Below, piece after piece: positions 1,677 through 62,259 of a DNA stretch of 64,000 nucleotides (position 1 is the first letter of the stretch; each line of letters starts with the position of its first letter). This DNA comes from a virus. Lineage: Duplodnaviria; Heunggongvirae; Uroviricota; Caudoviricetes. The stretch is taken from positions 87,323 through 151,322 of IMG/VR virus record IMGVR_UViG_650377940_000003; one strand, given 5' to 3'. A program made the translations under genes and the position numbers. Below the pieces are notes generated by a model. That model had not been told where the DNA came from. It worked only from the letters and a program-made list of their open reading frames with translations, and did no database searches.

Positions 1677-2193
1677 AGATTGATTTGACTCTTAATGAAG
1701 CACGAGTAATCCAAGACGCACTTGATGCGACGAGCCTGTGCCGTTCTGGATGCTACATGGGTTACAAGAGTGGTGATGAGGATTTGTGTTTCAAACTTGA
1801 TAAGGATGGAAATTATCGCTGCAAGCTAATGCGAGAAATTGATTCTATCAATGGCAAGCTTGAGGATGTAATAAATAAAGGCCGATAAAATCCGGGTTCT
1901 TGTGGATACTTAACAAAAGGATGTGCAGACCGATGATATAACTATTGATGACGTAGGATTATTAGTAAAATTTTGGTAATTTTGATAATTGTGTTGAATA
2001 ATCTCTTTGTGCGGTGTATGCTTGAGACAACCTCAATACAAGATGGTCAAGCCAAAAGAATGTGAGGTTAATATAATGTGGATTATGATAATTTTACTTA
2101 TGGTATTGGATGCCGTGTACGCACTTAGTCTGTTAGGAGCGCTTTCCGATGCCGATGATCAGAGTGGGCGGCTGGAAATGAAACAGGGAAGGA

Positions 2194-2433
2194 ATGGTCG
2201 AAATGGATAATTTGAAACCGTGTCCATTTTGCGGTGGAGAAGTTACTATTGCAGAGGGCGGTTATCGCCAAACACGATGGATGTATGTTACGAGAGGAAA
2301 CAAAGAAAATAGGTGCAACTGCTATGTTATCATGGAAAGCAAAACTTACGACTTTGATTCCTCTGAAATGGAAAAAGCAAAAATTAAAGCCGATCTTATC
2401 GAAGCATGGAATAAACGGATTTATAAAAACTAA
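2194..2433 (+). CDS. Lar-family restriction-alleviation-like zinc-ribbon protein
   Basis: N-terminal LKPCPFCGG motif typical of small Lar-family proteins; 79 aa; in the phage accessory arm. Confidence 0.4.
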   Translation: MVEMDNLKPCPFCGGEVTIAEGGYRQTRWMYVTRGNKENRCNCYVIMESKTYDFDSSEMEKAKIKADLIEAWNKRIYKN

Positions 2434-2453
2434 GTTCTAATAGAGGTGATTCT

Positions 2454-3207
2454 ATGACAAGAAATGAATTGTTTGGAGCGTTATGCTTCCCAGAATATAG
2501 TTTTCTTCGGGAGAATGAGCATCTTGGCAAGCATATGATGTTCGTAACGGTCGGTGGCAGTCATGCTTACGGGACAAATGTTGAGGGCTCAGATCTTGAC
2601 ATTCGAGGTGTAGCATTGAATTCAAAAGAAGACCTTCTTGGTCTCGGTGAGTTTGAGCATTATGTGGACACTCAGACCGATACAACGATTTATAGCTTTA
2701 ACAAAGCTGTGAAATTGATGTGCAGTGGAAATCCCAATATGCTGGAACAGTTAGGAAATGCCGATGAACTCGTTATTAGCTATAACCCAATGACGCAGCT
2801 ACTTATGGACAACAAAAACCTATTCCTTTCAAAGCGTGTGATTTTACTCGTTTGGAGGTTTTGCAGGCAAGCTGATTCAGAAGTCTGATACATTAGACAA
2901 AGATCCAATCTACCATAATTCAAAGAAAATGCACAAGACGGTAATGAATGCAGTTCGTGTATACCTGATGCTCTTTGACATCTTGGAAAAAGGTGAAATT
3001 AAAACCTATCGAGACAATGATCATAACTTCCTGACGCAGCTTCGCAACGGTGAATATGATTACAAAGAGATTCGTCAGCAACTGATTCCGGCCTATGAAA
3101 GCAGATTGTCAGTTGACAAGAGCGAGACTTACCTGCCGGACAATGTTGATTGGAAGCGGGTCAACGAGCTTGTGATGACCGTAAATGAGGAGTCTTTAAA
3201 GATCTGA
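2454..3207 (+). pseudogene. nucleotidyltransferase (Pol-beta superfamily, GS..DxD motif) interrupted by an apparent 1-nt frameshift near 2842
   Basis: Frame 0 encodes GGSHAYGTNVEGSDLDIRGV (NTase motif) and decays to nonsense after ...LFLSKRV; frame +1 is open from 2842 with protein-like sequence FYSFGGFAGKLIQ... continuing into ORF 2929..3207; junction at T4 run 2842-2845. Confidence 0.5.
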
Positions 3208-3231
3208 TAAAACCAATATTTTTGAAAGGAA

Positions 3232-3858
3232 GTGATTCTTATTAACTCTAATTTGTTAATAAATCGTGAGCAAAGTATTGCTATTGTGTGTATAATGTGC
3301 CTGCTGGCGGGGAATCTTGTATCGAAGATCAGTCCGGTAATTCAGAATCATGGTGATTCATACCTTTATAATAATAGCCCTCCGGCAGTGAGTGTAGTGC
3401 AGCAAGAGGAAAAGGAGCCAGAAGTCATTGTAGAAACCGTTACTGAGATGCGGATTGTAAACTTTGGTCAGGGCAAACATAAACTCACTGATGACGAACG
3501 TGCTCTTGCGGAGCAGATCGTTGCTTGTGAAGCAGGTGCTGACAGTTTGGAAGGCCAGATGGCTGTGGCCCAATGCCTTTATGATTCCGCTGTACTTGAT
3601 AGTCTAACCATCCAGCAGGTCTTTAAGAAGTATGGTTATAGTTCCTTATATAATAGGAAGGTGACGGCAGAGAACGAACTGGCTGTGTCTATGGTGTTTG
3701 ATTACGGCGCTAAGATTTCAGACAAACCTATTCAATGGTTTGTAACCCCGGCGGCTGCTCCAGGCAGTTGGCACGAGCGCGGAGCAACCTTTGCTGGACA
3801 ATTTGGCGCACACAGGTTTTATTATGACGCGAAGCTGGTTGTGGATGATGCTGAGTAA
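3232..3858 (+). CDS. cell wall hydrolase, SleB/Hydrolase_2-like, with N-terminal TM/signal
   Basis: ERALAEQIVACEAGADSLEGQMAVAQCLYDS and C-terminal W..TP....G.H.FY pattern typical of SleB-type hydrolases; start codon uncertain. Confidence 0.55.
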   Translation: MILINSNLLINREQSIAIVCIMCLLAGNLVSKISPVIQNHGDSYLYNNSPPAVSVVQQEEKEPEVIVETVTEMRIVNFGQGKHKLTDDERALAEQIVACEAGADSLEGQMAVAQCLYDSAVLDSLTIQQVFKKYGYSSLYNRKVTAENELAVSMVFDYGAKISDKPIQWFVTPAAAPGSWHERGATFAGQFGAHRFYYDAKLVVDDAE

Positions 3859-3982
3859 ATGGCATCATCTAAAATTTTGATAAAGTAGCACAACAAAATG
3901 GTGTGGTACATATTGACGAAAACAAAAAGATGTGTATAATATATCTTGGAAGTTGTTTATGTGATCGGAAGGCGGTATTTCG

Positions 3983-4309
3983 ATGAGTGAGAAAAAGGTT
4001 TTGGGAGTTATACAGGTTGAGAACTTTTTGAAGTACATAAGAAAAAAGCGAGTGTGGGTCTGTTTTATTTGCAATGGTGTGGATGTTCACATGATCTGCA
4101 AAAAGATGGACGACATTGGCGTAGAGACGCATGGGATTGTCAAAGGCATTGGATTTTTTGGAAACGAAAGTCATATTGAGTTGCGGCAAGAATGTCACGA
4201 AGTAAGGAGGGTTGAGTTTAGGCCGGGCGATAAAGAGAAAGCGTATGAGATGATATTCGATAACACCAGCGTGTTCGTATCAGAGAATCCAGAGTTGTAC
4301 GGGCACTAA
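3983..4309 (+). CDS. hypothetical protein
   Basis: ORF with RBS; Cys/His rich. Confidence 0.25.
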   Translation: MSEKKVLGVIQVENFLKYIRKKRVWVCFICNGVDVHMICKKMDDIGVETHGIVKGIGFFGNESHIELRQECHEVRRVEFRPGDKEKAYEMIFDNTSVFVSENPELYGH

Positions 4310-4328
4310 AAATATTTTTGAAAACCTA

Positions 4329-4357
4329 TTGACTTCTGTAAAGGTATCCTGTATAAT
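4329..4357 (+). promoter_or_regulatory. consensus sigma70/sigmaA promoter TTGACT-17-TATAAT overlapping an inverted copy of the phage motif
   Basis: TTGACT at 4329-4334, 17-nt spacer, TATAAT at 4352-4357; drives the MazF-like gene. Confidence 0.7.
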
Positions 4358-4400
4358 ATAGCTATGGAACGGAGCTACACTATTATAGAGGAGAAAGACT

Positions 4401-4820
4401 ATGGACAACAATATTGACCCAAAGGTCGGAGAGGTTTGGTTGGTTGATCTATCCAATGCGACAGGTCATCAGCAGCGCGGTATTCGACCGTTCGTTGTGA
4501 CGAGCAACAATAAGCGCAACTTCTTTAGTCCAACAATTAAAGGGAATCCGTTGTCTTCCAGAATATACAAGCGCTCTCCGGTTCATGTTCTACTCTCAAA
4601 GGAAGATTGTGATTTCCTAGAGGTTGATAGTATCGTTCTATGTGAAGAGACTGATACACTTAACAAAGGACAGTTCATTAAAAAACTTGGTGTCTTGTCG
4701 GAGCGTCAGATGAATATGATCGCAATGGCAAGATGCAAGGATGAACCGTTTTTGCTTGCAGCATTCCTGAGCGGCGTACAACATACCATGGAATTTCAGA
4801 ATTTTGCCGCATTTGCTTGA
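4401..4820 (+). CDS. MazF/PemK/Kid-family endoribonuclease toxin homolog (solitary)
   Basis: GEVWLVDLSNATGHQQRGIRPFVVTS matches Kid/PemK signature GEIWLV.LDPT.GHEQ.G.RP..IV; no antitoxin-like ORF adjacent. Confidence 0.65.
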   Translation: MDNNIDPKVGEVWLVDLSNATGHQQRGIRPFVVTSNNKRNFFSPTIKGNPLSSRIYKRSPVHVLLSKEDCDFLEVDSIVLCEETDTLNKGQFIKKLGVLSERQMNMIAMARCKDEPFLLAAFLSGVQHTMEFQNFAAFA

Positions 4821-4873
4821 TTTTTTATAAGGTTTAATGGTACACTACATATAATAAGAAGGAGTGTGCCACT

Positions 4874-5800
4874 ATGCTTACTGAAGAAAAAATCAAAGCT
4901 TTTGCCGAAAAGTATTCTGATAGAAGCGGTGAGTTTGTTGCATCGACGATGCGTCACGTCATGGATTACGAGGCCGAGCGTGGGTATGAGTTGTTTGACT
5001 TCACAAAAGATGATTTCGTAAAGATGTTTGCCAAATATAATTGGGTGAATTCGAGTCGTTCGTTTAAAAATGTGAAGTCAATAATCACAGGCTACATCAA
5101 AAGTGAAAACGAAACAAGCATGTATGATCTGGCTGACTTTTCAGAGAGCGATGTAAGCGCAGATGATATGTACAATGACAGTTATTTTGCGTCGGTTGAC
5201 GAATTTGTTGACTTCTTAAATAAGTACGAAGAGCCATATCAGATTCGTATGAACGTAATTGCTGTTTTGTACTGGATTGGTCTTACTTCCGATGAGATTT
5301 CTAATCTAACAATTAACGATGTGGATTTTGAATCTAATACCGTTCTTGATAAGACTGATGTTGACGCAAGGTTAATGGATATTATCAAGCAATGTTACGA
5401 GATGAAACAGTATGATGCCCCCAATAAGAGCGGTTATAGAACATTTTATGTCATGAATGGCGATTATATCCTACGCAAAACGAAGGATAAACCCGGTGTA
5501 AACAGTGATCCAAAGACGTCTATAATTTCAATTCATGTCTATTTTTCGAGGTTGAACGATATCCTCGAAAAAAGGCATCATTCAAAAACCTTAGATCAAA
5601 GATATTTAGCCAGAAATTGTGAGTATATCAAGGTTTATAACTACTGTAAAACTCATCCAAAATTTAATCTTGCAGAACTTAGTTTCGGAAATGGTAAAGG
5701 TCCTCTTGCGGACATTATCGGAAGAAAGTGCAGTAAAGTTGCCTATCTTAGTTTCCGGCAAGGATATAAAGGTTGGGTTGAATATTTCCATGAAAATTAA
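4874..5800 (+). CDS. hypothetical protein with tyrosine-recombinase box-I-like segment (likely non-catalytic)
   Basis: IRMNVIAVLYWIGLTSDEISNLTINDVDF resembles integrase core-binding/box I region; no clear RHRY. Confidence 0.25.
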   Translation: MLTEEKIKAFAEKYSDRSGEFVASTMRHVMDYEAERGYELFDFTKDDFVKMFAKYNWVNSSRSFKNVKSIITGYIKSENETSMYDLADFSESDVSADDMYNDSYFASVDEFVDFLNKYEEPYQIRMNVIAVLYWIGLTSDEISNLTINDVDFESNTVLDKTDVDARLMDIIKQCYEMKQYDAPNKSGYRTFYVMNGDYILRKTKDKPGVNSDPKTSIISIHVYFSRLNDILEKRHHSKTLDQRYLARNCEYIKVYNYCKTHPKFNLAELSFGNGKGPLADIIGRKCSKVAYLSFRQGYKGWVEYFHEN

Positions 5801-5833
5801 AAACAGGGGGCTTCGGCCCCTTCATTTTAACAT

Positions 5834-5856: not shown

Positions 5857-5877
5857 CTATTAGAAAGGGAGATGCAG

Positions 5878-8091
5878 ATGAGAACACTTTTACTGTTCCG
5901 TGGAGCACCCGGTTGCGGGAAGTCCACCTATATTAAAGAGCATAATCTTGAGCAGTACGTATTGAGTGCTGATACACTTCGCCTTATGTGCCAGAGCGCA
6001 CAGGAAACACCTGATGGGCAGATGGAGATTTCTCCGCAGAATGATGATGTTGTATGGGAGATGCTTTTCAAACTGCTTGAGGTGCGGATGAGCCATGGCG
6101 AGTTTACTGTGATTGATGCAACGAATTCCAAGACGGTCGAAATGAATTGTTATAAGAATCTTGCAAAACAGTATCGTTATCGGATGTATGTTATTGATAT
6201 GACGGACCTTCCGATCGAGGAATGCAAACGAAGAAACGCTCAGAGAGAATGGCTAAAGCGAGTTCCTGAAGCGGCTATTGATAAGATGTACGCTCGGTTT
6301 GCTACTCAAAAAGTTCCTTCTGGCGTGACAGTTCTTCCTTCTACTACGGATGTGATGTCCGATTTGAACTACTGCCCGAATGACTTTAACCAGTGGAAAA
6401 AGATACATATCATCGGTGATATTCATGGCTGCTATACCTGCTTGAGTGAATACCTTGGTGAGATGAAGGACGACGAGCTTTATATCTTCGTTGGTGATTA
6501 TCTCGATCGTGGCATCGAAAACGTTGAGGTATTCAAGTTCTTGTGTGATGTTGTAAATAACAACCGCAAGAATGTGATCCTTTTGGAAGGGAACCACGAG
6601 CATTGGCTGAACAAGTGGGGGCATGATAAACCGGTTCAAAGTGAAGAGTTTGCAAACTACACTCGTCCGCAGCTCTTTAAAGCCGGTATTGACAAGAACA
6701 CTGCTCGTAAGATCTATTCCAGAGTCGGCCAGTGTGTCTACTTTGAGTATGATGGTAAGCGGTATTTCGTAAGTCACGGTGGTCTGAGCTATCTTCCTTA
6801 TTTTCTTCCGTTCGTGTCTGCGGATCAGATGATTAAAGGCGTAGGCCGCTATCCTGATATACTGACCGTGGCTGAGTCTTGGGAAAAGTCGATGCCGGAT
6901 AGCTATATTCAGATCTTCGGCCATCGAAATGTACAGGATGTTCCTATTGATATGGGTCATCGGTGCTACAATCTTGAAGGCAAAATCGAGTTTGGTGGAT
7001 ATCTTCGTTGTGTGGAGCTTGAACACGGTCAGCCTATCAAATGCGTAGAAACCAAGAATGATGTATTCCGAAAAGAGGAGCCAAAGACTGAAACTGCCGT
7101 TGAAATGAAAACTGAGTTCGATAACGCAGAACTTGTTAGTAAGATGCGTCAAAGCAAATATGTGTTTGAGAAGCGATTCGGAGATATTTCTTCTTTCAAC
7201 TTCTCTCGTGAAGCATTTTATAAGAAGCACTGGGATGAGGTTTCTACCAAAGCAAGAGGGTTGTTCATTAACACAAAGACGAATAAGATTGTAGCTCGAA
7301 GCTATGATAAGTTCTTTGCGGTTGATGAGCGGAATGAAACGAGAATTGGAAACCTACAGAACACTTTGAAGTTCCCGGTGACTGCATATCTAAAAGAGAA
7401 CGGATTTCTTGGTATCATTTCGTATGATGCAGAACAGGATGGTCTGTTCATTGCAAGTAAATCCACTCCTGATGGGCCTTTTGCAGATATGTTCCGAAAG
7501 ATTCTCATGGATACGACTTCTGATGAAGATCGTAAGAATCTGAAAGAAGTTGCAAAAGAGAATGGCTCCATCATCTTCGAGGTGATTGATCCTGTGAATG
7601 ATGCACATATCATCGAATATAAGAAACCGCACATTGTTTTGCTGGATATTATTGCAAATGATATGAATTTCAGTGTAATGGATTATGATGATTTGAAGCG
7701 TGTAGCCGAGAAGTGTCATCTGCAGATTAAGGAGAAGGTTAAAACCTTTGAGAACTGGAGTGAATTCTATCCTTGGTACGAAGAAGTCATGAACGAGAAC
7801 TATCTGCATCATGGTTTTGAACACGTTGAAGGCTTTGTTTTGCGAGACAGCAATAATTTCATGTTTAAGCTGAAGCTTCCGTATTATAAGCACTGGAAGT
7901 TCTTGCGTGGTGTCATGCAGAGCGTTCAAAAACGTGGCTATTATGAAAATACCGCAAAGTTGTTTACTGCCGAGGATAACCTGTTCTATGGTTGGATGCG
8001 TGAACAACGAGAGAAAGATCAAGAGTCTTTCTGCAAGAAGGGTATTATTCAGCTGCGGAATGAGTTCTACGCAAGTCAGCAGAAGAGCTAA
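5878..8091 (+). CDS. trifunctional polynucleotide kinase-phosphatase-ligase (Pnkp/CthPnkp-like RNA repair enzyme)
   Basis: N-terminal P-loop GAPGCGKST kinase; central calcineurin-type phosphoesterase GDIHGC...GDYLDRG...GNHE; C-terminal nucleotidyltransferase ligase motifs KENG (I), IIFEVID (III), EGFVLRD (IV), FKLKL (V). Confidence 0.7.
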   Translation: MRTLLLFRGAPGCGKSTYIKEHNLEQYVLSADTLRLMCQSAQETPDGQMEISPQNDDVVWEMLFKLLEVRMSHGEFTVIDATNSKTVEMNCYKNLAKQYRYRMYVIDMTDLPIEECKRRNAQREWLKRVPEAAIDKMYARFATQKVPSGVTVLPSTTDVMSDLNYCPNDFNQWKKIHIIGDIHGCYTCLSEYLGEMKDDELYIFVGDYLDRGIENVEVFKFLCDVVNNNRKNVILLEGNHEHWLNKWGHDKPVQSEEFANYTRPQLFKAGIDKNTARKIYSRVGQCVYFEYDGKRYFVSHGGLSYLPYFLPFVSADQMIKGVGRYPDILTVAESWEKSMPDSYIQIFGHRNVQDVPIDMGHRCYNLEGKIEFGGYLRCVELEHGQPIKCVETKNDVFRKEEPKTETAVEMKTEFDNAELVSKMRQSKYVFEKRFGDISSFNFSREAFYKKHWDEVSTKARGLFINTKTNKIVARSYDKFFAVDERNETRIGNLQNTLKFPVTAYLKENGFLGIISYDAEQDGLFIASKSTPDGPFADMFRKILMDTTSDEDRKNLKEVAKENGSIIFEVIDPVNDAHIIEYKKPHIVLLDIIANDMNFSVMDYDDLKRVAEKCHLQIKEKVKTFENWSEFYPWYEEVMNENYLHHGFEHVEGFVLRDSNNFMFKLKLPYYKHWKFLRGVMQSVQKRGYYENTAKLFTAEDNLFYGWMREQREKDQESFCKKGIIQLRNEFYASQQKS

Positions 8092-8208: not shown

Positions 8209-8293
8209 GGGGATATGGTGAAATTGGCAGCCACGCTTGATTCAAACTCAAGTGTCGAAAGACGTATCGGTTCAAATCCGATTATCCCTACCA
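8209..8293 (+). tRNA. tRNA-Leu (anticodon CAA)
   Basis: Hand-folded cloverleaf: acceptor GGGGATA/TATCCCT, anticodon loop TTCAAAC, long variable arm, T-loop TTCAAAT, CCA encoded. Confidence 0.75.
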
Positions 8294-8494
8294 TGAAGAT
8301 TAGTTGTTCTAGCTCGTTCGGGGATTGGCCGTACATTGGCGACCGGAAAGACGTCACACCGGTAAAGGACGTCAAGCCAGACAAGAAGAGAAATAAGGTG
8401 TAAGCCGACTAGCTATCGGATAAATACTCTTCGGTTCGCCAGAAAACTAGAATGTAAAACGAATGGTTGGCTGTTTCTGATCTTCTTTTTATAT

Positions 8495-8577
8495 GCGCCC
8501 GTGGTGGAATCGCAGACACAGGAGACTTAAGATCTTCTGCCAGAGATGGCGTGCGGGTTCAAGTCCCGCCGGGCGCA
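8495..8577 (+). tRNA. tRNA-Leu (anticodon TAA)
   Basis: Acceptor GCGCCCG/CGGGCGC, anticodon loop CTTAAGA, long variable arm, T-loop TTCAAGT. Confidence 0.7.
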
Positions 8578-8584
8578 TTTATAT

Positions 8585-8660
8585 CTGGGCGTAGCGAAGT
8601 TGGTATCGCACCTGTTTTGGGAACAGGGGACCGCAAGTTCAAGTCTTGTCGCTCAGACCA
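8585..8660 (+). tRNA. tRNA-Pro (anticodon TGG)
   Basis: C1:G72 acceptor typical of tRNA-Pro, anticodon loop TTTGGGA, T-loop TTCAAGT, CCA encoded. Confidence 0.7.
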
Positions 8661-8748
8661 GTCCGAAAGGGCATGTAGAATTTTTCATTCACATTATTCC
8701 CAGCTCTCTGGAAACGGAGCAGTGTGACGTAGTAAGCTGGGTATATGA

Positions 8749-8819
8749 TGCGCCATCGCCAAGCGGTAAGGCAGAGGACTTTGACTCCTCCATCACAGGT
8801 TCGACCCCTGTTGGCGCAA
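8749..8819 (+). tRNA. tRNA-Gln (anticodon TTG)
   Basis: U1:A72 acceptor TGCGCCA/TGGCGCA, anticodon loop CTTTGAC, T-loop TTCGACC. Confidence 0.65.
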
Positions 8820-8824
8820 TTTAT

Positions 8825-8906
8825 GCGGATATGGTGGAATGGCAGACACGCCAGATTTAGGATCTGGTGCTTCGGCGTGTGGGTTCGATGCCCACTATCC
8901 GCACCA
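8825..8906 (+). tRNA. tRNA-Leu (anticodon TAG)
   Basis: Acceptor GCGGATA/TATCCGC, anticodon loop ATTTAGG, long variable arm, T-loop TTCGATG, CCA. Confidence 0.75.
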
Positions 8907-9007
8907 CGGTCATGAATCGTTGTTGTTCATGGTTGAACTCCTTTGACCACTATTATTCCCGGCTCGCCAGTGATGGTGCAGTAGTGCTTTGTAAGCTGGG
9001 TTCTCAT

Positions 9008-9082
9008 GCAGCGGTCGTACAACGGCTAGTATATCAGCCTTCCAAGCTGAGGATGAGGTTTCGACTACCTTTCGCTGCTCCA
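9008..9082 (+). tRNA. tRNA-Gly (anticodon TCC)
   Basis: Acceptor GCAGCGG/TCGCTGC, D-stem GTAC/GTAT, anticodon loop CTTCCAA, T-loop TTCGACT, CCA. Confidence 0.6.
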
Positions 9083-9264
9083 ATTTCGTATGGGTAGGGA
9101 TTTTAAGCGGTCAGATCCGGCTGCGCCTGTGCGAGATACCACCCCGAAAGGGGCTAACGAAATTATCCATGTACGTTATTCTCGGTTCGCTCGAAAGAGT
9201 ACAGCGTGCCTTTGCAAGCCGAGCATCCCAGCCTAGTGATGCCAGTTGCTAGGTTGGTTCTTAT

Positions 9265-9340
9265 GCGACTGTAGTTCAATTGGCAGAGCGTCAGATTTCC
9301 AATCTGAATGTTGCGGGATCATACCCCGTCAGTCGCTCCA
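9265..9340 (+). tRNA. tRNA-like, second Gly(TCC)-type with atypical T-loop (ATCATAC)
   Basis: Acceptor GCGACTG/CAGTCGC, D-arm GTTC..GAGC, anticodon loop TTTCCAA, CCA; non-canonical T-loop, so possibly a pseudo-tRNA. Confidence 0.4.
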
Positions 9341-9567
9341 CACGCAGCCCCTTACGCTGCACCGGTTACTCAGAGCCGAAAGAAACCTATATGTTACGAC
9401 ATGGTTGCCAAGAGTGATCATATTGGAACGCGACGTAGCTTGGATAGTGAGAATTAAATTCTGAGGTATACGGCTGGATAGCTTAATGGTAAAAGCGCTC
9501 GGAAACGCCGAGAGATGAGGTTCGATTCCTCCGCTGGCATCGCGCCGACGAAAGTCGGCGTTTGCAT

Positions 9568-9644
9568 GGGATAGTAGCTCAGTTGGTCAGAGCTGGCGGC
9601 TCATAACCGCTTGGTCGCGAGTTCAAATCTTGCCTGTCCCACCA
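9568..9644 (+). tRNA. tRNA-Met/Ile2/fMet type (anticodon CAT)
   Basis: Acceptor GGGATAG/CTGTCCC, D-loop TAGCTCAGTTGGTCAGAGC, anticodon loop CTCATAA, T-loop TTCAAAT, CCA. Confidence 0.75.
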
Positions 9645-9747
9645 GCCCGATAGGGCATACATAAAATCTGCTAGAACTTTTGTTTTATAAGCGAATGAAT
9701 AATATGACGTTAATACGTCTATTATTTTTCGCTTATTTTCGGAGTTT

Positions 9748-9768
9748 TAGCTATGTAACACAGGATAC
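9748..9768 (+). promoter_or_regulatory. phage conserved motif copy (TAGCTATGTAACACAGGATAC)
   Basis: Copy of TAWWYACAGGATAC 12 nt upstream of AAAGGAGG RBS of the methyltransferase gene. Confidence 0.6.
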
Positions 9769-9779
9769 TAAAAGGAGGA

Positions 9780-11256
9780 ATGAAAACTGAAGCATTACGG
9801 AGATATCACACAACTCCATGGATGGCAGATTGAACCGGTTTCCTGTATCACAGGAGGCAGTCCCTGCCAAGATCTGAGTCAAGCCGGTAAACGTGAAGGT
9901 TTGGCTGGTGAACGCTCTGGATTGTTCCTTGAAATGATTCGTGTGATTACAGAAATGAGGGAGGCCACTAATGGAGAATATCCAAAATTCGCAATCTGGG
10001 AAAATGTCAGAGGAGCTTTCAGCTCAAGCAAAGGTGAAGACTTCAGATGTGTGTTGGAAAGATTTGCACGCATTGTCGAGCCAGACGTTTCAATTCCTCG
10101 ACCTTCAGGAAAGAACGGAAAGTGGGCAAAATCTGGAGCGATTTCCGGTAATGGATGGTCTCTTGCATGGAGATTGTTCGACGCTAAATACTGGGGAGTC
10201 GCCCAGCGTCGCCAGAGAATCGCGCTTGTCATGGATTTTGGAGGACAACGTGCCTCAGAAATTCTATTTGAGCGCACGAGCATGTCAGGGGATTCTTGTG
10301 AGAGCATCCCGGCGTGGAAAACCTTTGCCCGAACTCCTGAAGCAAGCGTTGCTGGATATGATCGAATGGTGGAATCCAGGAACTCTGTCACAGGTGGTGC
10401 AGAAAGTGAAGGAACAAGAAGGTCTGGAAGAGAAGGAATTGGACGAGTATTGGAGTCAGACCATCGAGAGACTTCGACTCGATGCACAGAACCTGCAGCC
10501 TACACTCTAAAAATCCGTTCTGGATGTGAAGGTGGCGGTAAAGGCGCTCTTGTTCAAACTGAATTGAGCGCAACGATTTCTACGTTACAAGACCAGACGC
10601 TGATTTGCTTGGCAGAAAATCCCTCCTTACATAATTTAAAACAAAATATTTCGCCGGTGGTGTTTGAGAGCCACAGTCAGGACGCTCGATACACTCAGCA
10701 GAGTGATACAAGTCCGACTTGTACTGCTCAGTGGGGAACTGGTGGCAATAATATGCCACTGGTCATTGAGAAGAAAGCCTTTGCGATGCAACGCATTGGT
10801 GAATACAAGGAAAGTGAACAGGCTAGTACGATGAAATCTCGTGACTACAAGGACGCTACTGACCTGATTACAGAGAAAGAAACGAAGAATCTACGATGGA
10901 TTGTTCGCCGTTTGACTCCTTTGGAGGATGAACGGCTTCAGGGGTTCCCTGATGGATGGACAGATATCGGTGACTGGATTGATGAGAACGAAAAGAAGCA
11001 TAAAACTTCTGACGCAGTTCGTTATAAGGCACTCGGCAATTCAATCGCATTACCGCAATGGTATTGGATTTTTCAGAAGATGAAATCGTATATCGGTGAG
11101 AATCCTACTCTTGGTAGCCTCTTCGATGGGATCGGCGGCTTTCCGCTAGTATTTCAAAGCACATATGGTGAAGGTACTGCCATTTGGGGGTCAGAAATTG
11201 ATAGCTTTTGCGTTGCAGTAACTAAGAAGCATTTTCCAGAAAAGCAAAGAGGATAA
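9780..11256 (+). CDS. C5 cytosine DNA methyltransferase, circularly permuted (motif order III/IV-VI-VIII-TRD-IX-X-I-II); ATG at 9780 is 1 nt out of frame (A4 run 9783-9786)
   Basis: Frame +1 from 9784: KLKHYGDITQL...GGSPCQDLSQAG (IV), ENVRGA (VI), QRRQRIALV (VIII), RRLTPLEDERLQGFPDGW (IX), KALGNSIALP (X), then LFDGIGGF (I) and SEID (II) before stop at 11256; RBS AAAGGAGGA precedes ATG 9780; deleting one A gives M-KLKHYGDITQL. Confidence 0.6.
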
Positions 11257-24973: not shown

Positions 24974-27304
24974 GTGGCAGATAAGAAATTTAATGAAAAT
25001 ATGATTCGTTGCTACATCAGGATAAAACGAGTCTTTTATCCGAAAGATGGGAGGGAGGTGGAGCCCGGCGGCTTCGCCACTTTCTCTGCCGAGGTGGTAA
25101 AAGTCAAGCAGGGAAATCCTATCATGAGTCGATATAGTGACCTCCGACTGAAGGGCAATGTCCCTAGTCTTGATATGAATAAAACTTATTCGTTCTGTGG
25201 TGAGTATGTTCATCATGAAAAGTTTGGTGATCAGTACAAAATCATCTACATGAATGAGTTTCAAGAGATCACTGACCCGGAAGAACAAAAAAGCTTTCTC
25301 CGTTTTATTTTGACCGATCATCAGTTTGAGATGCTTTATGAAGCATTCGATAATCCGTATGAAGTTATCAAGAATGGTGACATCAAGGCTCTTTGTACTA
25401 TTAGCGGTATTACGGAAGGTCGAGCACAAAAGATCATTGACTCTTTTGAACGCAACATTGATAACAGTGAAGCGTACACAAAACTGATTGAGTACGGTCT
25501 GACTCCCAGTGCTATTGAAAAGCTTGTTCGTCAGTATCACGGTGCAGACATTCTGGTAAAAAAGATTGAGGAGAATCCTTACGTCCTGATTGATGATGTG
25601 TATGGTATCGGCTGGAAAAAAGCTGACGCTATTGCTTTGAATATGGGCTTAAAGCACAATTCGCAATTTAGAATCGAAGCTTACGTCATGCATTTTCTTG
25701 CCGCTCGTGCCGAAGAAGGTAACTCTATTATCCCGGCAAACCAGACAATCAATAGCTGTATTAAGGAACTTGATTTGAACGAGGGTGATCAAGAAGTCAT
25801 CAAAAGGGCACTTTTCCATTTACATGATGTCCGTGAAACGCTTTGGTGGAGTGATGACCGTCAGGAATTTGCTTTAACTAGAGTGTGGAATCTTGAAGAT
25901 AAAATCGCAAAGGAAATCAAGCGACTGGCTGATGCACCTGTTGAGCCGATTGGTCGAAACATGGATGCTGCAATCAATGAAGCCGGGAATGCGCTTGGCA
26001 TCGAGTATACTGAGGAGCAAAGAGATGCTATTAAAAAGGTATGCTCTAGCAACGTCTGTATCTTAACAGGCTACGGCGGAACTGGTAAAAGTACCGTTGT
26101 CGCTGGTGTTTTAAAGGTTCTTCGTGGCAAGTCTTTCGCTCAGACTGCACTTTCTGGTCGTGCCGCAGCTCGTATGCAGGAGATTACTGGTCAGGATGGA
26201 AAGACCATTCACCGTCTTCTTGGCTACGACATCGAGAATGGTGGTTTCATCCATAACAAGGACAATCCTCTTGAAGAAGACATTATTATTCTGGATGAGA
26301 CCTCTATGGTTGGAGCTCAGTTATTCTATGACTTGATTCAGGCAATCGAGACCGGCAAGCGATTCATCATGATTGGTGATGACGGCCAGCTTGAGAGTAT
26401 TGGTATGTGTAACATCTTCAAGGATATGCTTGCATCTAAGGTTGTTCCTGTGGCTCGTTTGACTAAGATCCATCGTCAGGCAGCTAAGTCTGCAATTATC
26501 ACGGAAAGCATTAAGGTTCGTAACGCTACGCAGTTGGTGCCTTATGGCTGGGCTGGTAGTGAGATTCGTGGTGAACTTCGTGATTTGGAGCTTGATATCT
26601 ATAAGGATGCAAGTGAGTCGTTCAACCATATCATCAATCAGTACCGTACCTTATATAATAAGGTGGGGAATGATAGTGCGAAGATTCAGATTGTACTTCC
26701 ACAGAAGCTTCGTGGCAGTATTTGCACCTACGAAGTAAACAATGCTATTCAGGAGATTGTAAATCCGAGTCGTGGTCAGGCGGAAGCAAAGGTCACTATC
26801 TATGGAGATGGCAAGGACAGAGAATATACTTTGCGTGAGGGCGATCAGGTCATCATCAACAAGAACAACTACGAGCTTCACACATACAATCTCAAGACAA
26901 AGAAAAAGGAAGAGAAGTGTCCGGTGTTCAACGGAAACCGTGGCATTATCCGAAAGATTGAGAGCAGCTTTATTCTGGTTGATTTTGACCAGTGGGGCAC
27001 GATCTTTATTCCACATTATTTTGGTGGGAATAACATCTGGGCAACGCTTGAACTTGCCTATGCTCTGAGTTGTCATAAACTGCAGGGCAGTGAGGCTCCG
27101 TATGTGATTGTTGGCATGGACAATTCTGCGTACCTGATGTTGACGAGAGAATGGCTCTATACGGCCATCACTCGTGCCAAGAAGTATTGTGTGATTTGTG
27201 CCGAAACTCATGCTCTTGATCGGGCTGCAAAGACTTCGAGAGTTCCATATAAGCGGACGTTCTTGAAGGAATTTTTACGGAAAGAATTTGCAGAAAAGCA
27301 TTGA
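24974..27304 (+). CDS. RecD/Dda-like SF1B DNA helicase with HhH region
   Basis: Motifs GYGGTGKST (I), IILDETSMV (II), IMIGDDGQLESIG (III), IHRQ (IV), VGMDNSAYLMLTREWLYTAITRAKK (VI). Confidence 0.7.
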   Translation: MADKKFNENMIRCYIRIKRVFYPKDGREVEPGGFATFSAEVVKVKQGNPIMSRYSDLRLKGNVPSLDMNKTYSFCGEYVHHEKFGDQYKIIYMNEFQEITDPEEQKSFLRFILTDHQFEMLYEAFDNPYEVIKNGDIKALCTISGITEGRAQKIIDSFERNIDNSEAYTKLIEYGLTPSAIEKLVRQYHGADILVKKIEENPYVLIDDVYGIGWKKADAIALNMGLKHNSQFRIEAYVMHFLAARAEEGNSIIPANQTINSCIKELDLNEGDQEVIKRALFHLHDVRETLWWSDDRQEFALTRVWNLEDKIAKEIKRLADAPVEPIGRNMDAAINEAGNALGIEYTEEQRDAIKKVCSSNVCILTGYGGTGKSTVVAGVLKVLRGKSFAQTALSGRAAARMQEITGQDGKTIHRLLGYDIENGGFIHNKDNPLEEDIIILDETSMVGAQLFYDLIQAIETGKRFIMIGDDGQLESIGMCNIFKDMLASKVVPVARLTKIHRQAAKSAIITESIKVRNATQLVPYGWAGSEIRGELRDLELDIYKDASESFNHIINQYRTLYNKVGNDSAKIQIVLPQKLRGSICTYEVNNAIQEIVNPSRGQAEAKVTIYGDGKDREYTLREGDQVIINKNNYELHTYNLKTKKKEEKCPVFNGNRGIIRKIESSFILVDFDQWGTIFIPHYFGGNNIWATLELAYALSCHKLQGSEAPYVIVGMDNSAYLMLTREWLYTAITRAKKYCVICAETHALDRAAKTSRVPYKRTFLKEFLRKEFAEKH

Positions 27305-27329
27305 CAATTATGTGCGTATCCTGTATAAT
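27301..27329 (+). promoter_or_regulatory. consensus sigma70 promoter TTGACA-17-TATAAT overlapping an inverted motif copy
   Basis: TTGACA 27301-27306, TATAAT 27324-27329; motif GTATCCTGTATAATATAGTT at 27317-27336. Confidence 0.65.
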
Positions 27330-45960: not shown

Positions 45961-46794
45961 ATGATTATTGACTGCAAATCTATTGCACAAGATATCAAAA
46001 ATAAAATCAAGAATATTATTGCAGAAGATGGCTACGCTCCTGTTTTATATATTTATCAAGTAGGAGACAACCCTGCGTCTAATGCTTATATCCGTGGCAA
46101 GCTGCGTGACTGTGAAGAGGTGGGAATCGAAGCAAAACTTATCAAGTTGTCAGAGAATATTACTGAAGATGAATTGAACAACAAGATACTGGAAGATTAT
46201 AATTATAATTGGGAAGATATGGACGGTATCATCGTCCAGCTTCCATTGCCAAAACATATCAATCCCAAAAATATCTGTATTCCAGACGCGGTTGATGTTG
46301 ATGGTTTTAATTCTACATCTCCATTTCAGCCGTGCACTCCGCTGGGTGTTATGAAGATTTTTGACTCCATCGGCTACAATCTGGATGGCAAGAATGTGCT
46401 TGTGTGTGGTCAATCTGATATTGTAGGTCGTCCACTGGTCGATATGCTGATTAAGCGGCACTGTAATGTGATCTCTGTGAATAGCACTGGTTCCACTATG
46501 AAGGCAATTGCTCTTGAATTTGAAATTGTCGATGTGATTATTTCTGCTGTGGGTAAGCGCAACTTTCTCATACCGTTTGATATTGATCGGGTTAAAGTGT
46601 GTATCGATGTTGGTATCAATTATGACGAGAATGGGAAGCAGCATGGAGACTGTTCCGATGATGTCTATGATATGAAAGATATCAAAGTGACTCCTCGAAT
46701 CGGTGGGGTTGGACTAATGACACGCGCCATGCTTCTTTATAATATGTGTGTGGCAAGGTATGGGGAGCATAAGATGGAGGAGGTGATTGGATGA
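45961..46794 (+). CDS. folD: bifunctional methylenetetrahydrofolate dehydrogenase/cyclohydrolase FolD
   Basis: GIIVQLPLP, DVDGF, PCTPLG, GQSDIVGRP, TPRIGGVGLMT signatures. Confidence 0.8.
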   Translation: MIIDCKSIAQDIKNKIKNIIAEDGYAPVLYIYQVGDNPASNAYIRGKLRDCEEVGIEAKLIKLSENITEDELNNKILEDYNYNWEDMDGIIVQLPLPKHINPKNICIPDAVDVDGFNSTSPFQPCTPLGVMKIFDSIGYNLDGKNVLVCGQSDIVGRPLVDMLIKRHCNVISVNSTGSTMKAIALEFEIVDVIISAVGKRNFLIPFDIDRVKVCIDVGINYDENGKQHGDCSDDVYDMKDIKVTPRIGGVGLMTRAMLLYNMCVARYGEHKMEEVIG

Positions 46795-46985
46795 AAGAAG
46801 TCCCAATCTGGGAAAAAACGACGCTTACTGTGGAAGAAGCTGCTGCATACTCTAATATTGGCACACATAAACTAAGAGAAATCACAGACAAGGACGACAA
46901 GCAGCTTGTGCTGTGGGTTGGATCAAAACGCTTGATTAAACGCAAAGCACTCGAAAAATACATAGACCAGTCTTATTCGATTTGA
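46791..46985 (+). CDS. xis: excisionase/HTH_17-type DNA-binding protein
   Basis: LTVEEAAAYSNIGTHKLREI helix-turn-helix; directly upstream of integrase. Confidence 0.55.
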   Translation: MKEVPIWEKTTLTVEEAAAYSNIGTHKLREITDKDDKQLVLWVGSKRLIKRKALEKYIDQSYSI

Positions 46986-47058
46986 AATCAGAGCTTTGGT
47001 GTGGTATACTTATAGTGTCACATCAAGGCTCTTTATAATAAATGTAAGGAGTCTATTT

Positions 47059-48216
47059 ATGGAAAGACGTAAAGATAGTAAAGGTAAAGTCTTAAAAGAC
47101 GGCGAAAGCCAAAGAAAGGATGGAATATATCAATATCGATGGACTGATAAAACTGGAAAACGTCACACAATTTATGCGAAAGATTTAAAAGTTCTTCGAG
47201 AAAAAGAAAATAATGCTAACAAAATAATTTCTCAAGGGATAGATTTTGAAGGCGGTAAAATAACAACATATCAGTTTCTTATAAGATATTATGAATTTAA
47301 GAAAACATCAATAAAGAAATCGAGTTTGAAGACATATTATACAACGACAAACAAGTTGAAGGATACGTCTATCGGTAATACAAAAATTATTGACGTAAAG
47401 ATTTCAGACGCAAAACAACTGATTATTGATTTGAGCCAGAATGGATTGAAATACAGTACAATAAAAACTATAAAAACACTGATAAAAGCTGCATTTAAAA
47501 TGGCTCAAGAAGATGATTTAATTTTAAAGAATCCGTTTGATTTTCAGCTGAATGAAGTTATAAAAAACGACACTAAAAAAAGAGTCGCATTAACCGAACA
47601 ACAGTATTCTGATTTGCTTGAATTCGTTTTATGTGATCGAGTCTTTCGTAAGTATTATGATGACATCGTATTTTTGTATGAAACTGGAATTCGCGTAAGT
47701 GAATTTTGTGGATTAACACTTTCGGACATTGATTTTGTGAAACATGAAGTTGTAATTGATAAACAACTCATCAAAACCTCAAAAGGAGAACTCTACATCA
47801 CAGATCCAAAATCAAAAGCTGGGTTTCGGACGATTCCATTGAGCGCTGAGGCATATCACGCGATTAAAGCCATTATCAATCGTCGGCCACAAACAAACGA
47901 GATGATGGTCGATGGCTATTGTGGTTTCATCTCAATTCATTCAAATGGAACCCCGAAGACCGCTTGGAACATTGAATATGAGCTAAGAGAAATTGCAAAG
48001 GCGTATAACAGTCTTTACCCAGAGTGCCAATTACCAAATCTCACACCTCACGTTCTTCGACACACTTTTTGTACCAGAAAAGTTAGCAGCGGCATGAACA
48101 TCAAGGCAGTTCAATATCTAATGGGGCATAGCTCAGTACAAATTACACTCGATGTATACACGTCAATCGACGCTGATATGATAAAAACTGAATTCGCAAA
48201 AGTGGCACAGATGTGA
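47059..48216 (+). CDS. int: tyrosine recombinase/integrase (Tn916 Int-like)
   Basis: HVLRHTFCTR (HxxR) and LMGHSSVQITLDVYTS (catalytic Y); RBS TAAGGAG; marks the right prophage end. Confidence 0.85.
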   Translation: MERRKDSKGKVLKDGESQRKDGIYQYRWTDKTGKRHTIYAKDLKVLREKENNANKIISQGIDFEGGKITTYQFLIRYYEFKKTSIKKSSLKTYYTTTNKLKDTSIGNTKIIDVKISDAKQLIIDLSQNGLKYSTIKTIKTLIKAAFKMAQEDDLILKNPFDFQLNEVIKNDTKKRVALTEQQYSDLLEFVLCDRVFRKYYDDIVFLYETGIRVSEFCGLTLSDIDFVKHEVVIDKQLIKTSKGELYITDPKSKAGFRTIPLSAEAYHAIKAIINRRPQTNEMMVDGYCGFISIHSNGTPKTAWNIEYELREIAKAYNSLYPECQLPNLTPHVLRHTFCTRKVSSGMNIKAVQYLMGHSSVQITLDVYTSIDADMIKTEFAKVAQM

Positions 48217-48534: not shown

Positions 48535-48822
48535 ATGAAAATCATTCCTCTTGCAGACCGTGTTGTCATTAAGACTGTTGAAGTTGAGGAGACCACCAAG
48601 GGCGGCCTGATCCTGACCGGCAGCGCAAAAGAGAAGCCGCAGGTCGCACAGGTCATTGCTGTCGGCCCCGGCGGTGTCGTGGACGGCAAGGAAGTCAAGA
48701 TGACCGTCAAGGTCGGCGACAAGGTCCTCACCAGCAAGTACTCCGGCACTGAGGTCAAGGTGGACGGCGAAGAGTGCACCATCGTGCGTCAGAGTGATAT
48801 TCTGGCTGTTGTGGAAGACTGA
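48535..48822 (+). CDS. groES: co-chaperonin GroES
   Basis: MKIIPLADRVVIK...GGLILTGSAKEKPQVA..V.AVGPG; high GC (host). Confidence 0.9.
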   Translation: MKIIPLADRVVIKTVEVEETTKGGLILTGSAKEKPQVAQVIAVGPGGVVDGKEVKMTVKVGDKVLTSKYSGTEVKVDGEECTIVRQSDILAVVED

Positions 48823-48847
48823 AACTGAATTTTCCCTTTTCAATTGA

Positions 48848-50509
<1,662 letters not shown>

Positions 50510-57800: not shown

Positions 57801-58169
57801 GTGGTGAAAAAGATGGTGGACCTGCTGGAGCAGGAAAACCCCGGCTGCTTCGATGACCCCGGCAAGACCTTCCTGGACCCCTACATGAAGTCCGGTCTGT
57901 ACATTACGGAAATCGTCAAGCGCCTTTACCGCAGCGAGAAGATGCGGCAGGCTTTCCCGGACGATAACGCCCGGCTGGAACATATCTTTGCCAAGCAGGT
58001 CTATGGGCTTGCCCCGACAGAGATCATTTACCGCATTGCCATCAGCTACATTCTGGGTTTTGCAAAGGATCACGGCATCACCGCCCACCATATCCGTCAG
58101 GCGGATACGCTGGAATTTGCCAAGGCGGGCACCATGGAAAGGGAACTGGATAAGATTTTCAGAGACTGA
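54861..58169 (+). CDS. GIY-YIG-like nuclease + SF2 (DEAH) helicase fusion with Q-rich linker and C-terminal MTase-N-lobe-like segment
   Basis: N-terminal MIYAYT...KIGYT (GIY-YIG-like); helicase motifs NAKPRFGKT (I), VIDEAHEG (II), LSGTPF (III), TTGVTIPE and QAAFRAQN (V/VI); C-terminal IFTPKWVVKKMVDLL...FLDPYMKSG resembling MTase motifs X/I. Confidence 0.6.
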   Translation: MAGITLRTARQVVPMIYAYTTPEIARHNGWTKIGYTEQSVDKRLKQQTHTADVLFHEEWRGNAVYDDGSGEVFTDHDFHAYLRKLNVENDRKNEWFHLDGQQSRRYFQDFRMNRGRVQLDAAIAYTLREEQERAVRDTKTYYQSHPGGEYLWNAKPRFGKTLSVYDFCKQVDAQTVLIVTNRPAIANSWYSDYVRFLGRESGYLFVSHVDALAGQPHVLDEQGYLDAAAQGEELYKRIEFVSLQDMKGSKYFGGEYDKLRHLTELNWDVLVIDEAHEGVDTYKTDLAFDRIRHKFTLHLSGTPFKALANDKFAGDAIFNWTYADEQAAKRNWQGAPGQQNPYANLPMLNLYTYQMSEIIRDEIRQGVEIDGETQEFAFDLNEFFKVKSGGSFEHEAEVDRFLDAMTTQNKFPFSTPELRAELKHTFWLLNRVDSARALAKKLQAHPVFRDYEVILAAGDGKLDDTDENQKSFDRVKAAIAHHEKTITLSVGQLTTGVTIPEWSAVLMLSNLKSPALYMQAAFRAQNPCLFHENGTFRRKENAYVFDFDPARTLLIYEQFANDLSQDTASGKGDTEERKAHIQNLLNFFPVIGEDEEGEMIPLDAEKVLSIPRKIKSKEVVRMGFQSNFLFQNISNVFSAPQEVLDILQNFQPISEAKAKPIQITPETGADLSLNDKGEVDLDEGYVIGKAADVFGEKIYESTPALDTALQDLTDAPAPAKEEHLEPLKKSITKEIITPMVEQAKQEYGRDLKLSDQKRFESTAKAKMDVAVNKVVDNYRIDQSQLETQRTQQLQSCATAQQRQQVNREFDAKQQQSTAALMENLQSTIQQTAQEMQQTIVRTVETNQKEQEKKGYEDTVRDHLRGFSRTIPSFLMAYGDETVTLANFDRIIPDKVFQEVTSITLEQFRFLRDGGPYINQTTGQEEHFAGHLFDPVVFDDSVKEFLNLKVKLADYFDESRTEDIFDYIPPQKTNQIFTPKWVVKKMVDLLEQENPGCFDDPGKTFLDPYMKSGLYITEIVKRLYRSEKMRQAFPDDNARLEHIFAKQVYGLAPTEIIYRIAISYILGFAKDHGITAHHIRQADTLEFAKAGTMERELDKIFRD

Positions 58170-58192
58170 CAAATAGAATACAGCATAAAAAC

Positions 58193-58233
58193 AAAGGCGG
58201 CTGTCTGCATGGGTGCAGATGGCCGCCTTTTTG
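58193..58233. terminator. bidirectional terminator between convergent genes
   Basis: GGCGGC...GCCGCC hairpin then TTTTTG. Confidence 0.6.
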
Positions 58234-58312
58234 TGCTATGCCTGTTACAAAAATGAAAGCTGTTGAACGTCCGGCAAATCGTTTTCAGGTGTGGAATGAT
58301 TGGCTTTTTTCA

Positions 58313-62250: not shown

Positions 62251-62259
62251 GGGAACGCC

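Follow-up and report, generated by a model that had tools for sequence, protein, structure and literature searches.

A MazF-fold endoribonuclease gene beside a putative MrpR-like repressor gene in a Faecalibacterium prophage, and its possible role in a lysogeny switch

Locus organization

The DNA described here (the window) is a stretch of 64,000 nucleotides (nt) from the IMG/VR virus record IMGVR_UViG_650377940_000003, positions 87,323 to 151,322, assigned to the Caudoviricetes. Its first 48 kb are the right-hand part of a temperate phage of roughly 130 kb in its integrated state, and host DNA with the Faecalibacterium groES and groEL genes follows; about 85 kb of the phage lie beyond the window. 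The gene of interest, mazF, starts with ATG, occupies positions 4401..4820 of the plus strand and encodes a MazF/PemK-fold endoribonuclease of 139 amino acids (aa), as identified with Pfam, phmmer, AlphaFold2 and Foldseek. It is the middle gene of a cassette of three genes on one strand. Upstream lies orf108 (3983..4309, plus strand), an open reading frame (ORF) with its own promoter that encodes a small, mildly acidic, all-beta protein of 108 aa. Downstream lies orf308 (4874..5800, plus strand), whose 308-aa product is an MrpR/SroF/YopR-like integrase-fold protein and the putative master repressor of the prophage, as indicated by Pfam matches in relatives.

The upstream edge of the cassette is marked by a terminator-like hairpin with a 12-pair stem and a T-containing tail (3842..3871, plus strand), which follows the preceding gene, and its end by an intrinsic terminator found in a terminator scan (5805..5821, plus strand). 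The same scan found no terminator between orf108, mazF and orf308. A GC-rich hairpin directly after the repressor stop codon was also seen by eye in diverged lineages. The first-pass annotation of this DNA, made from the letters alone, had treated mazF as an isolated gene; this does not hold, as the repressor gene begins 53 nt downstream with no terminator between them and the hairpins bracket all three genes. The distance from the end of orf108 to mazF is 91 nt, and the gap upstream of mazF measures 70-120 nt across lineages.

Three promoters or promoter-like sites on the plus strand serve the cassette. P1 (TTGACG-16-TATAAT, 3913..3940) precedes orf108 and P2 (TTGACT-17-TATAAT, 4329..4357) precedes mazF; both were found by consensus scan and match the consensus at 11 of 12 positions. 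A TTGAC...TATAAT sequence stands at the position of P1 in five of the seven diverged lineages read. P2 had been singled out in the first-pass annotation as a strong promoter and is indeed one of three plus-strand sites with at least 11/12 matches in the 48-kb prophage part. That number, three observed against ~0.9 expected (P(>=3) ~0.07), is weak evidence by itself, and P2 is judged to be real not from the counts but because of its position and the conservation of its -35 and -10 elements in diverged relatives, in which TTGAC is invariant and a -10 is present within otherwise diverged intergenic DNA. The third site, P3 (4817..4851), consists of a -35 element TTGATT over the mazF stop codon, an 18-nt spacer and TGnTACACT; this weaker, promoter-like element stands before the repressor gene in the close lineages and was recognized by eye when the spacers of nine loci were aligned, whereas a simple promoter scan did not call it. 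In the distant loci L185 and L198, a promoter-like -35 likewise lies over or beside the mazF stop codon. Since hairpins bracket the three genes, none lies inside and three promoters are present, the locus is a nested three-promoter, one-terminator insulated cassette. With its one terminator at the end, transcripts from P2 are therefore predicted to read through into the repressor gene.

Two further features were noted in the leader regions. The -10 of P1 is followed at 3941-3965 by a block, TATAAT-AcAACCaAAGgTTGTaTT, that is partly palindromic (ACAACC...GGTTGT) and is kept in L001, L005, L102 and L103, though between these lineages the repressors share no more than 20-35% identity; the block may serve as an operator or belong to a 5' leader. 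An inverted repeat (4347-4358 / 4381-4392) pairs the P2 -10 region with the ribosome-binding site of mazF and could occlude mazF translation solely in read-through transcripts from P1. A similar pairing is predicted in four of seven lineages, but with weak z-scores of -3.0 to +0.2, and control of mazF by such a hairpin was set aside as an explanation. No LexA box (GAAC-N4-GTTC) was found near 3880-4400 that would place P1 or P2 under LexA control.

The MazF-like protein and its tail

The product of mazF matches PF02452 (PemK_toxin) over residues 8-109, the core, with an E-value of 2e-19 and 70.1 bits, where the cut-off is 23.1. A second family match is to phrog_1936, 'MazF-like growth inhibitor'. 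The sequence GEVWLVDLSNATGHQQRGIRPFVVTS represents residues 10-35. The MazF proteins of Staphylococcus aureus and Bacillus subtilis were matched by phmmer at 5e-14 to 5e-11, and identity to MazF proteins of solved structure is 30-36%. An AlphaFold2 model built on an alignment of 36 homologues has a mean predicted local distance difference test (pLDDT) value of 87.4, and Foldseek aligned it with S. aureus, B. subtilis and Mycobacterium tuberculosis MazF (matches including 4MZP/4MDX) with E-values down to 1.6e-11 and target template-modeling (TM) values of 0.78-0.86. The model has the SH3-like barrel of the MazF/CcdB fold.

All 36 homologues have Arg29, and at position 52 they carry Ser or Thr without exception. 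The HMMER alignment pairs Arg29 with R25 and Ser52 with T48 of B. subtilis MazF (BsMazF), which we take to be the catalytic residues in that numbering; an Arg and a Thr reportedly have catalytic roles in Bacillota MazF. The assignment to the MazF/PemK/Kid-like endoribonucleases made in the first-pass annotation is thus borne out by the Pfam score, the fold (TM 0.8+) and the two residues kept on alignment. Because Arg29 and Ser/Thr52 are kept, MazF should be catalytically competent and is predicted to be active. A search of GTDB representative genomes for this MazF gave no confirmed match.

Beyond the core the protein carries a C-terminal tail (residues ~112-139, encoded at 4734..4817, plus strand), delimited by alignment and AlphaFold2. 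The first-pass annotation had reported an extension of 35 aa. The extension is real, and its length needs correction: the solved MazF proteins themselves extend roughly 10-12 residues beyond the aligned core, and the true extension is therefore only about 20-25 aa. Two helices are predicted in the tail (116-123 and 130-138; block-mean pLDDT 81-89), and its composition is acidic, then a hydrophobic helix (DEPFLLAAFL), then the second helix. D114, E115, P116, L118, F122 and F132 are invariant, and the tail is among the best-conserved parts of MazF. An exhaustive hidden Markov model search returned 6056 MazF relatives, and about 20 of the top 150 representatives run through the tail; their shared pattern, roughly A..(D/Q)xP....A....G(V)..T..F, is kept in relatives at 28-40% identity. 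By these alignments the tail, about 25 aa long, appears as a hallmark of a wider long-tailed MazF subfamily, whose carriers are large SPbeta-like temperate phages of gut Firmicutes. Regulation by the tail, an idea already voiced in the first-pass annotation, agrees with this strong conservation, and the tail may well be regulatory.

The upstream gene and the antitoxin question

The mazF gene had been called solitary, with no antitoxin-sized ORF nearby. This is contradicted by orf108, and each of the seven diverged lineages has an ORF of 101-127 aa in the slot that orf108 occupies. In the wider set of loci the slot ORFs encode 89-156 aa on the same strand as mazF, with an isoelectric point of 4.1-6.5 in 11 of 12 loci. 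The product of orf108 belongs to no Pfam, PHROG or PADLOC family. Its predicted fold has 10 strands, with YojF/PH-like folds nearest, and is neither a DNA-binding fold nor a known antitoxin fold. The upstream ORFs of the distant lineages are not homologous to orf108.

No recognizable MazE-type antitoxin was found in the 48-kb prophage part, and to this extent the lack of an antitoxin partner stated in the first-pass annotation is supported. With SPbeta YosL and B. subtilis MazE as queries, the latter checked by its match to yosL, phmmer found nothing below E = 2 among all six-frame segments of the window. A regular expression for the MazE/AimX motif (M-x3-Y-x-E-M) gave one irrelevant match across the window, and a Pfam scan of 40 small ORFs together with a PADLOC scan detected no known antitoxin or defence family. 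The locus also lacks the layout of a type II mazEF operon: there is no adjacent DNA-binding antitoxin of the ribbon-helix-helix (RHH) or AbrB type, and the genes do not abut under a single promoter, the 91-nt gap holding the promoter of mazF. By its position orf108 is a candidate MazF inhibitor or anti-repressor.

The putative MrpR-like repressor gene

MrpR (= YopR, SroF) is an integrase-fold, recombination-dead master repressor of SPbeta (PMC10516654; bioRxiv 10.1101/2025.11.27.690993). In the family to which the 308-aa protein belongs, domain and alignment checks were made on nine sequences, eight of which match PF22822 (MrpR_N_CB; cut-off 27 bits), the best at 4e-8. MrpR_C_cat is recorded for close relatives of the 308-aa protein, and its middle part matches the XerA/Tn1549 Int catalytic domain weakly (E 0.016-0.045). 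Thr stands in place of the box-I Arg (GLT), and the nine sequences share no invariant Arg or His.

Conservation across lineages

The order of an ORF of 101-127 aa, a MazF of 138-149 aa and an MrpR-like protein of 308-348 aa was found in every locus read of the seven diverged lineages compared. Identity across these lineages is 16-32% for the upstream ORF, 58-81% for MazF and 20-35% for the repressor. In 80 IMG/VR loci, which were chosen for highest MazF identity so that the comparison carries a selection bias, the corresponding values are 77-100%, 97-100% (full-length in all 80) and 81-100%, the repressors falling into two classes. Between the window and L015 they are 79%, 98% and 81%, respectively. 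The divergence of orf108 thus keeps step with that of the repressor and not with that of MazF. As far as these identities tell, MazF is a conserved core flanked by two fast-evolving genes, a pattern that would be expected if the flanking genes set immunity specificity and the nuclease acts on something conserved.

More distant tail-bearing MazF genes (30-40% identity) could be read in context in L185, L196, L197 and L198, two further loci reaching contig edges, and in all four an MrpR_N_CB protein follows. The match in L185 has 58 bits, with one DndB-like gene between mazF and the MrpR gene, and that in L196 has 37 bits, with the 5' end of mazF cut by what looks like an insertion sequence (IS). 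The tail-less MazF genes of phages Perkons and CB457P1, the two checked, both have no MrpR-type neighbor. In this small sample the tail and the linkage to MrpR appear to go together.

Some of the related contigs have further features near the cassette. At the 5' end of mazF in L196, a 44-kb viral contig, two consecutive ORFs at 1875-3382 resemble an IS3-type transposase from their translations, and the MrpR-like gene downstream of these IS-like ORFs is intact. Upstream of the mazF-MrpR pair of L185, on the opposite strand, an ORF within 1305-2505 resembles by eye a repressor of the LexA/CI type with a helix-turn-helix and an S24 peptidase, and it adjoins an ORF that looks HicA-like; this phage may carry two repressor types. 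In one lineage (L005-L008, 2099-5361) genes for a phosphoribosyltransferase-like protein, NAMPT/NAPRTase and NAD synthase stand just upstream of the cassette, an NAD+ salvage or synthesis set that is reminiscent of phage counter-defence against NAD-depleting systems. TnpB/Cas12f1-like genes occur a few kb downstream of the cassette in the close relatives L011, L012 and L016 (about 8900-10300).

Prophage, host and neighboring genes

The prophage ends with the genes for a Tn916-type excisionase (Xis) and a tyrosine integrase (Int), identified with Pfam (46791..48216, plus strand). The host groES-groEL genes lie just beyond (48535..50509, plus strand; Cpn10 and Cpn60), with a GroEL that is 99% identical to that of a Faecalibacterium metagenome-assembled genome, and the GC content rises at the junction from about 0.42 to 0.52-0.59. 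The integrated state of the temperate phage is concluded from this succession of Xis, Int and groES/groEL together with the GC jump. SPbeta-like replication genes in the window encode a PolIII alpha subunit, a RecD2-type helicase, primase, RecJ, DNA ligase and an anaerobic NrdD; YorF and YorH adjoin the cassette in relatives, and related contigs measure 122-141 kb. The phage is abundant in human-gut data: 147 sequences related to its MazF were found in IMG/VR, and the index of the collection lists the upstream ORF (P0096) in 541 blocks. The sole perfect 12/12 promoter consensus of the prophage part, TTGACA-17-TATAAT, lies at 27301-27329 between the genes for the RecD2-type helicase and the DNA ligase.

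Past the cassette terminator follows a gene for a kinase/phosphoesterase/RNA-ligase fusion of 739 aa with AAA_33, Metallophos and RNA_lig_T4_1 domains, resembling Pnkp-Rnl RNA repair enzymes (5872..8091, plus strand; phrog_8238, E 8e-227), and then an array of 8 tRNA genes (8209..9644, plus strand). MazF cleavage yields 5'-OH and cyclic-phosphate ends, which RNA-repair enzymes heal. A functional MazF/RNA-repair unit was considered and rejected: the Pnkp/ligase gene stands past the terminator, several lineages lack it or have another gene in its place, and among 80 IMG/VR loci it is present in 57 and absent from 23. Upstream of the cassette, a 144-aa ORF (2454-2888) represents a fragment of RlaP, an 'RNA repair pathway' nucleotidyltransferase, and covers profile positions 18-126 of 249. 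It is followed by a 92-aa ORF without Pfam match (2929-3207). The RlaP genes of relatives are intact and encode 250-348 aa; the split or truncated RlaP-like gene of the window may be a pseudogene.

On the host side, positions 52846-63615 contain genes for a methylase/restriction protein of the Eco57I type, a ResIII helicase of 1102 aa whose N-terminus is of the T5orf172/MUG113 kind and, on the minus strand, a GmrSD-type endonuclease, followed by an ORF with a weak Mob_Pre match. This region looks like a defence or mobile island.

Candidate cleavage sites

A TACATA at 4846-4851, after the -10 of P3, matches the U^ACAUA site of Bacillota MazF. The motif occurs exactly once in the spacer between mazF and the repressor gene in the window and in L001, L005, L011, L015 and L100-L103, where it directly follows a -10-like element TGnTAYWCT. 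It was not found in the mazF-repressor spacers of distant loci, including L185 and L198. Because it stands directly past the -10-like element, a role in the promoter or transcription start is at least as likely as one in cleavage; for this reason, and with its absence in distant lineages, the motif was rejected as a self-cleavage site. A second TACATA upstream of P1 in the window is not kept even in L015.

Within positions 1-48300, TACATA was counted 30 times in sense and 11 times in antisense orientation, though base skews predict the opposite, and low-order Markov models predict 10-12 sense sites. Five of the 30 sense sites lie at most 35 nt upstream of start codons, compared with 5.8% for hexamers of the same composition, which is suggestive only. 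The density of the motif is 0-0.07 per kb in Faecalibacterium DNA against 0.62 per kb on the phage sense strand, about ten-fold rarer in the host. Tolerance of MazF by the host is plausible if its specificity is as strict as the U^ACAUA specificity of Bacillota MazF.

Proposed role and alternatives

As the middle gene of a cassette with a putative SPbeta-type master repressor, mazF most likely encodes a part of a lysis/lysogeny switch and not a free-running host-killing toxin. Its activity, its targets, its part in lysogeny and its mode of restraint are deduced here from sequence and genomic context. By analogy with the phi3T/SPbeta circuit compared below, the phage would supply its own MazF as the post-transcriptional arm of its lysogeny switch, a proposal to which we give about even chances. 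MazF would be made together with the repressor by read-through from P2 and would cut lytic mRNAs of the phage, possibly also those of a superinfecting phage. Such cutting would reinforce the establishment and maintenance of lysogeny, and MazF may in addition contribute to immunity against related phages. The toxicity of MazF would be checked by a partner other than MazE, for which the upstream ORF, the repressor itself and the tail of MazF are candidates; a narrow sequence specificity in a GC-rich host is a further candidate and may add to the restraint. In a wider and doubtful, although possible, version, a clade of large temperate phages of gut Firmicutes would have taken in the MazF arm, and tail-bearing MazF and MrpR-type repressor would form an obligate MazE-less switch of two genes in which the nuclease is gated directly by the tail and/or by the repressor or the variable upstream protein and serves the life cycle of the phage as a dedicated, non-lethal regulator at the post-transcriptional level.

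Several observations weigh against a MazF arm of the lysogeny switch. The repressor copy in the window reaches 20.8 bits for MrpR_N_CB, under the cut-off; tblastn of the repressor against INPHARED gave no match to cultured SPbeta-like phages, and a profile search against the PDB gave weak integrase matches and none to solved MrpR. Scans of the 48 kb of prophage in the window detected neither AimR, AimP or AimX nor any YosL/MazE-like gene. The RNA-contacting loop residues of MazF differ from those of BsMazF, and UACAUA specificity is therefore not to be assumed. Neither do the site counts lend statistical support to the pattern predicted from phi3T: UACAU occurs 13 times in mazF-mrpR transcripts against 16.5 expected, the coding sequences of mazF and mrpR in seven lineages contain no UACAUA where codon-aware nulls predict no more than 1.3-2.2, and the sense-strand count of UACAUA ranks only 5th of 60 hexamers of the same composition. 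Depletion of sites in the repressor operon with enrichment elsewhere was accordingly dropped as a candidate signal, not being significant under composition-aware nulls. Finally, the gene order agrees just as well with a canonical toxin-antitoxin (TA) reading in which orf108 encodes a new antitoxin.

In this TA reading, which we regard as rather unlikely, orf108 and mazF would be a type II pair of novel sequence, with orf108 as the labile antitoxin, serving addiction or abortive infection and placed beside the repressor like a moron expressed in lysogeny. The small and mostly acidic product of the ORF that directly precedes mazF on its strand, strong promoters on both genes, the fast evolution of antitoxins and the wide annotation of phage MazF genes as 'MazF-like growth inhibitor' speak for such a pair. 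Coupled expression is nevertheless missing, since mazF has its own conserved promoter behind a gap of 70-120 nt, and orf108 has neither a DNA-binding nor a known antitoxin fold and diverges like the repressor instead of like MazF, as the L015 values illustrate; the lack of homology between orf108 and distant upstream ORFs also counts against a pair, and the deep linkage of the MazF tail to MrpR would be left unexplained. That linkage is the strength of a reversed toxin-repressor module, in gene order comparable to higBA/hicAB, in which the MrpR-like repressor would inhibit MazF via the tail and loss or inactivation of the repressor would free the nuclease. The adjacency of mazF and mrpR is the sole linkage kept from 81% to about 30% MazF identity, it tracks with the presence of the tail, and no terminator separates the two genes; however, a repressor only 20-35% identical across lineages in which MazF and its tail are conserved would be odd for a direct binding pair, and in L185 an extra gene stands between them. 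We consider the reversed module quite unlikely.

The tail might also act as a built-in pseudo-antitoxin that occupies the RNA groove of the dimer, in the manner of the hydrophobic C-terminal helix of MazE, AimX or YosL, and keeps the enzyme auto-inhibited until the tail is displaced by a signal from phage or host, which would be compatible with a MazF arm of the lysogeny switch and is thought very unlikely. MazE-type inhibitors insert a hydrophobic helix into the MazF groove (PMC10769878), and the tail, with its acidic stretch, hydrophobic helix and second helix, is strongly conserved and confidently modelled; yet it has no similarity to the MazE/AimX motif M-x3-Y-x-E-M, whose residues are the key ones (PMC10769878). 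Lytic host shut-off, raised as a possibility in the first-pass annotation, would mean that an mRNA interferase without an opponent is produced early in lytic infection from a strong promoter of the host type; it would agree with the sigma-A-type P2, with the failure to detect a MazE-like partner and with nearby RNA-repair genes and tRNAs that could protect phage translation. Against it stands the predicted expression of mazF with the putative lysogeny repressor in an integrated temperate prophage, which speaks instead for a part in the establishment or upkeep of lysogeny or in immunity; moreover, with MazF-like specificity, AT-rich phage transcripts would be cut about ten times more than those of the GC-rich host. 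Host shut-off is rated as highly improbable.

If the MazF arm of the lysogeny switch is real, MrpR/SroF-type switches would depend on MazF in general and not as a peculiarity of Bacillus, the locus would offer a natural case of MazF restrained without MazE, and the conserved tail would stand out as a regulatory element open to testing. Metagenomes of the human gut contain the phage very often and its host Faecalibacterium is a key commensal, so that the switch may have an influence on how prophages are induced there.

Comparison with known systems

In phi3T, host MazF promotes lysogeny by degrading lytic mRNAs of the phage, AimX and YosL are phage mimics of MazE that block host MazF, and the repressor operon contributes phi3T_93, whose product sets MazF free (PMC10769878; bioRxiv 10.1101/2023.04.27.537455). 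SroA and SroB bind MazE and thereby activate MazF, and Bacillota MazF cleaves strictly at U^ACAUA (bioRxiv 10.64898/2026.08.06.743204). The phage described here resembles the phi3T/SPbeta circuit as a large SPbeta-like temperate phage (YorF, YorH, PolIII-alpha, RecD2 module) with an integrase-fold MrpR-type repressor and a MazF tied genetically to the repressor operon (PMC10769878; PMC10516654; bioRxiv 10.1101/2025.11.27.690993). It differs in that the phage itself carries the nuclease gene, within the repressor cassette, and does not borrow a host enzyme, in that no homologue of AimR/AimP/AimX or YosL was found in the 48 kb scanned, and in its host, which is a GC-rich member of the Clostridia and not a Bacillus.

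With Bacillota MazF/EndoA (B. subtilis NdoA, S. aureus MazF) the protein shares the Pfam family, the fold and the catalytic Arg and Ser/Thr. Unlike Bacillota mazEF, the phage mazF has its own promoter and no gene for a MazE of the RHH or AbrB type, and its product has about 25 extra C-terminal residues (two helices), linkage to a repressor and other substrate-loop residues. The solitary MazF-mx of Myxococcus xanthus is reportedly restrained by the transcription factor MrpC. The two presumably resemble each other in that MazE is missing and a regulator of transcription is the candidate inhibitor of MazF; MazF-mx is, as we take it, chromosomal and developmental, MrpC being unrelated to MrpR, and we know of no tail described for it. 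The members of PHROG 1936/35650, 'MazF-like growth inhibitor', from Psychrobacillus phage Perkons (ORF37) and Enterocloster phage CB457P1 are likewise phage MazF proteins without annotated antitoxin, but they are tail-less, 118-120 aa long and without an adjoining MrpR-type gene.

For orf108 a candidate analogy is offered by the Sar anti-repressors (phi3T_99), which have about 100 aa, are encoded one gene from an SroF-type repressor and form lineage-specific pairs with it (bioRxiv 10.1101/2025.11.27.690993); orf108 likewise diverges in step with the repressor. Sar is LexA-controlled and encoded downstream of sroF, whereas orf108 lies upstream and has no LexA box near P1, and Sar is an intertwined dimer with 4 strands and 3 helices, in contrast to the 10-strand YojF/PH-like fold predicted for orf108. 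Maps of Faecalibacterium phages label MazF without comment (PMC12323421), and a literature search brought up no account of a MazF that is encoded by a phage, bears the tail and is linked to MrpR/SroF repressors. The MazF enzyme family and the connection of MazF with lysogeny are already known; what the present locus adds to them is the phage-internal, MazE-less, repressor-linked arrangement and the conserved tail.

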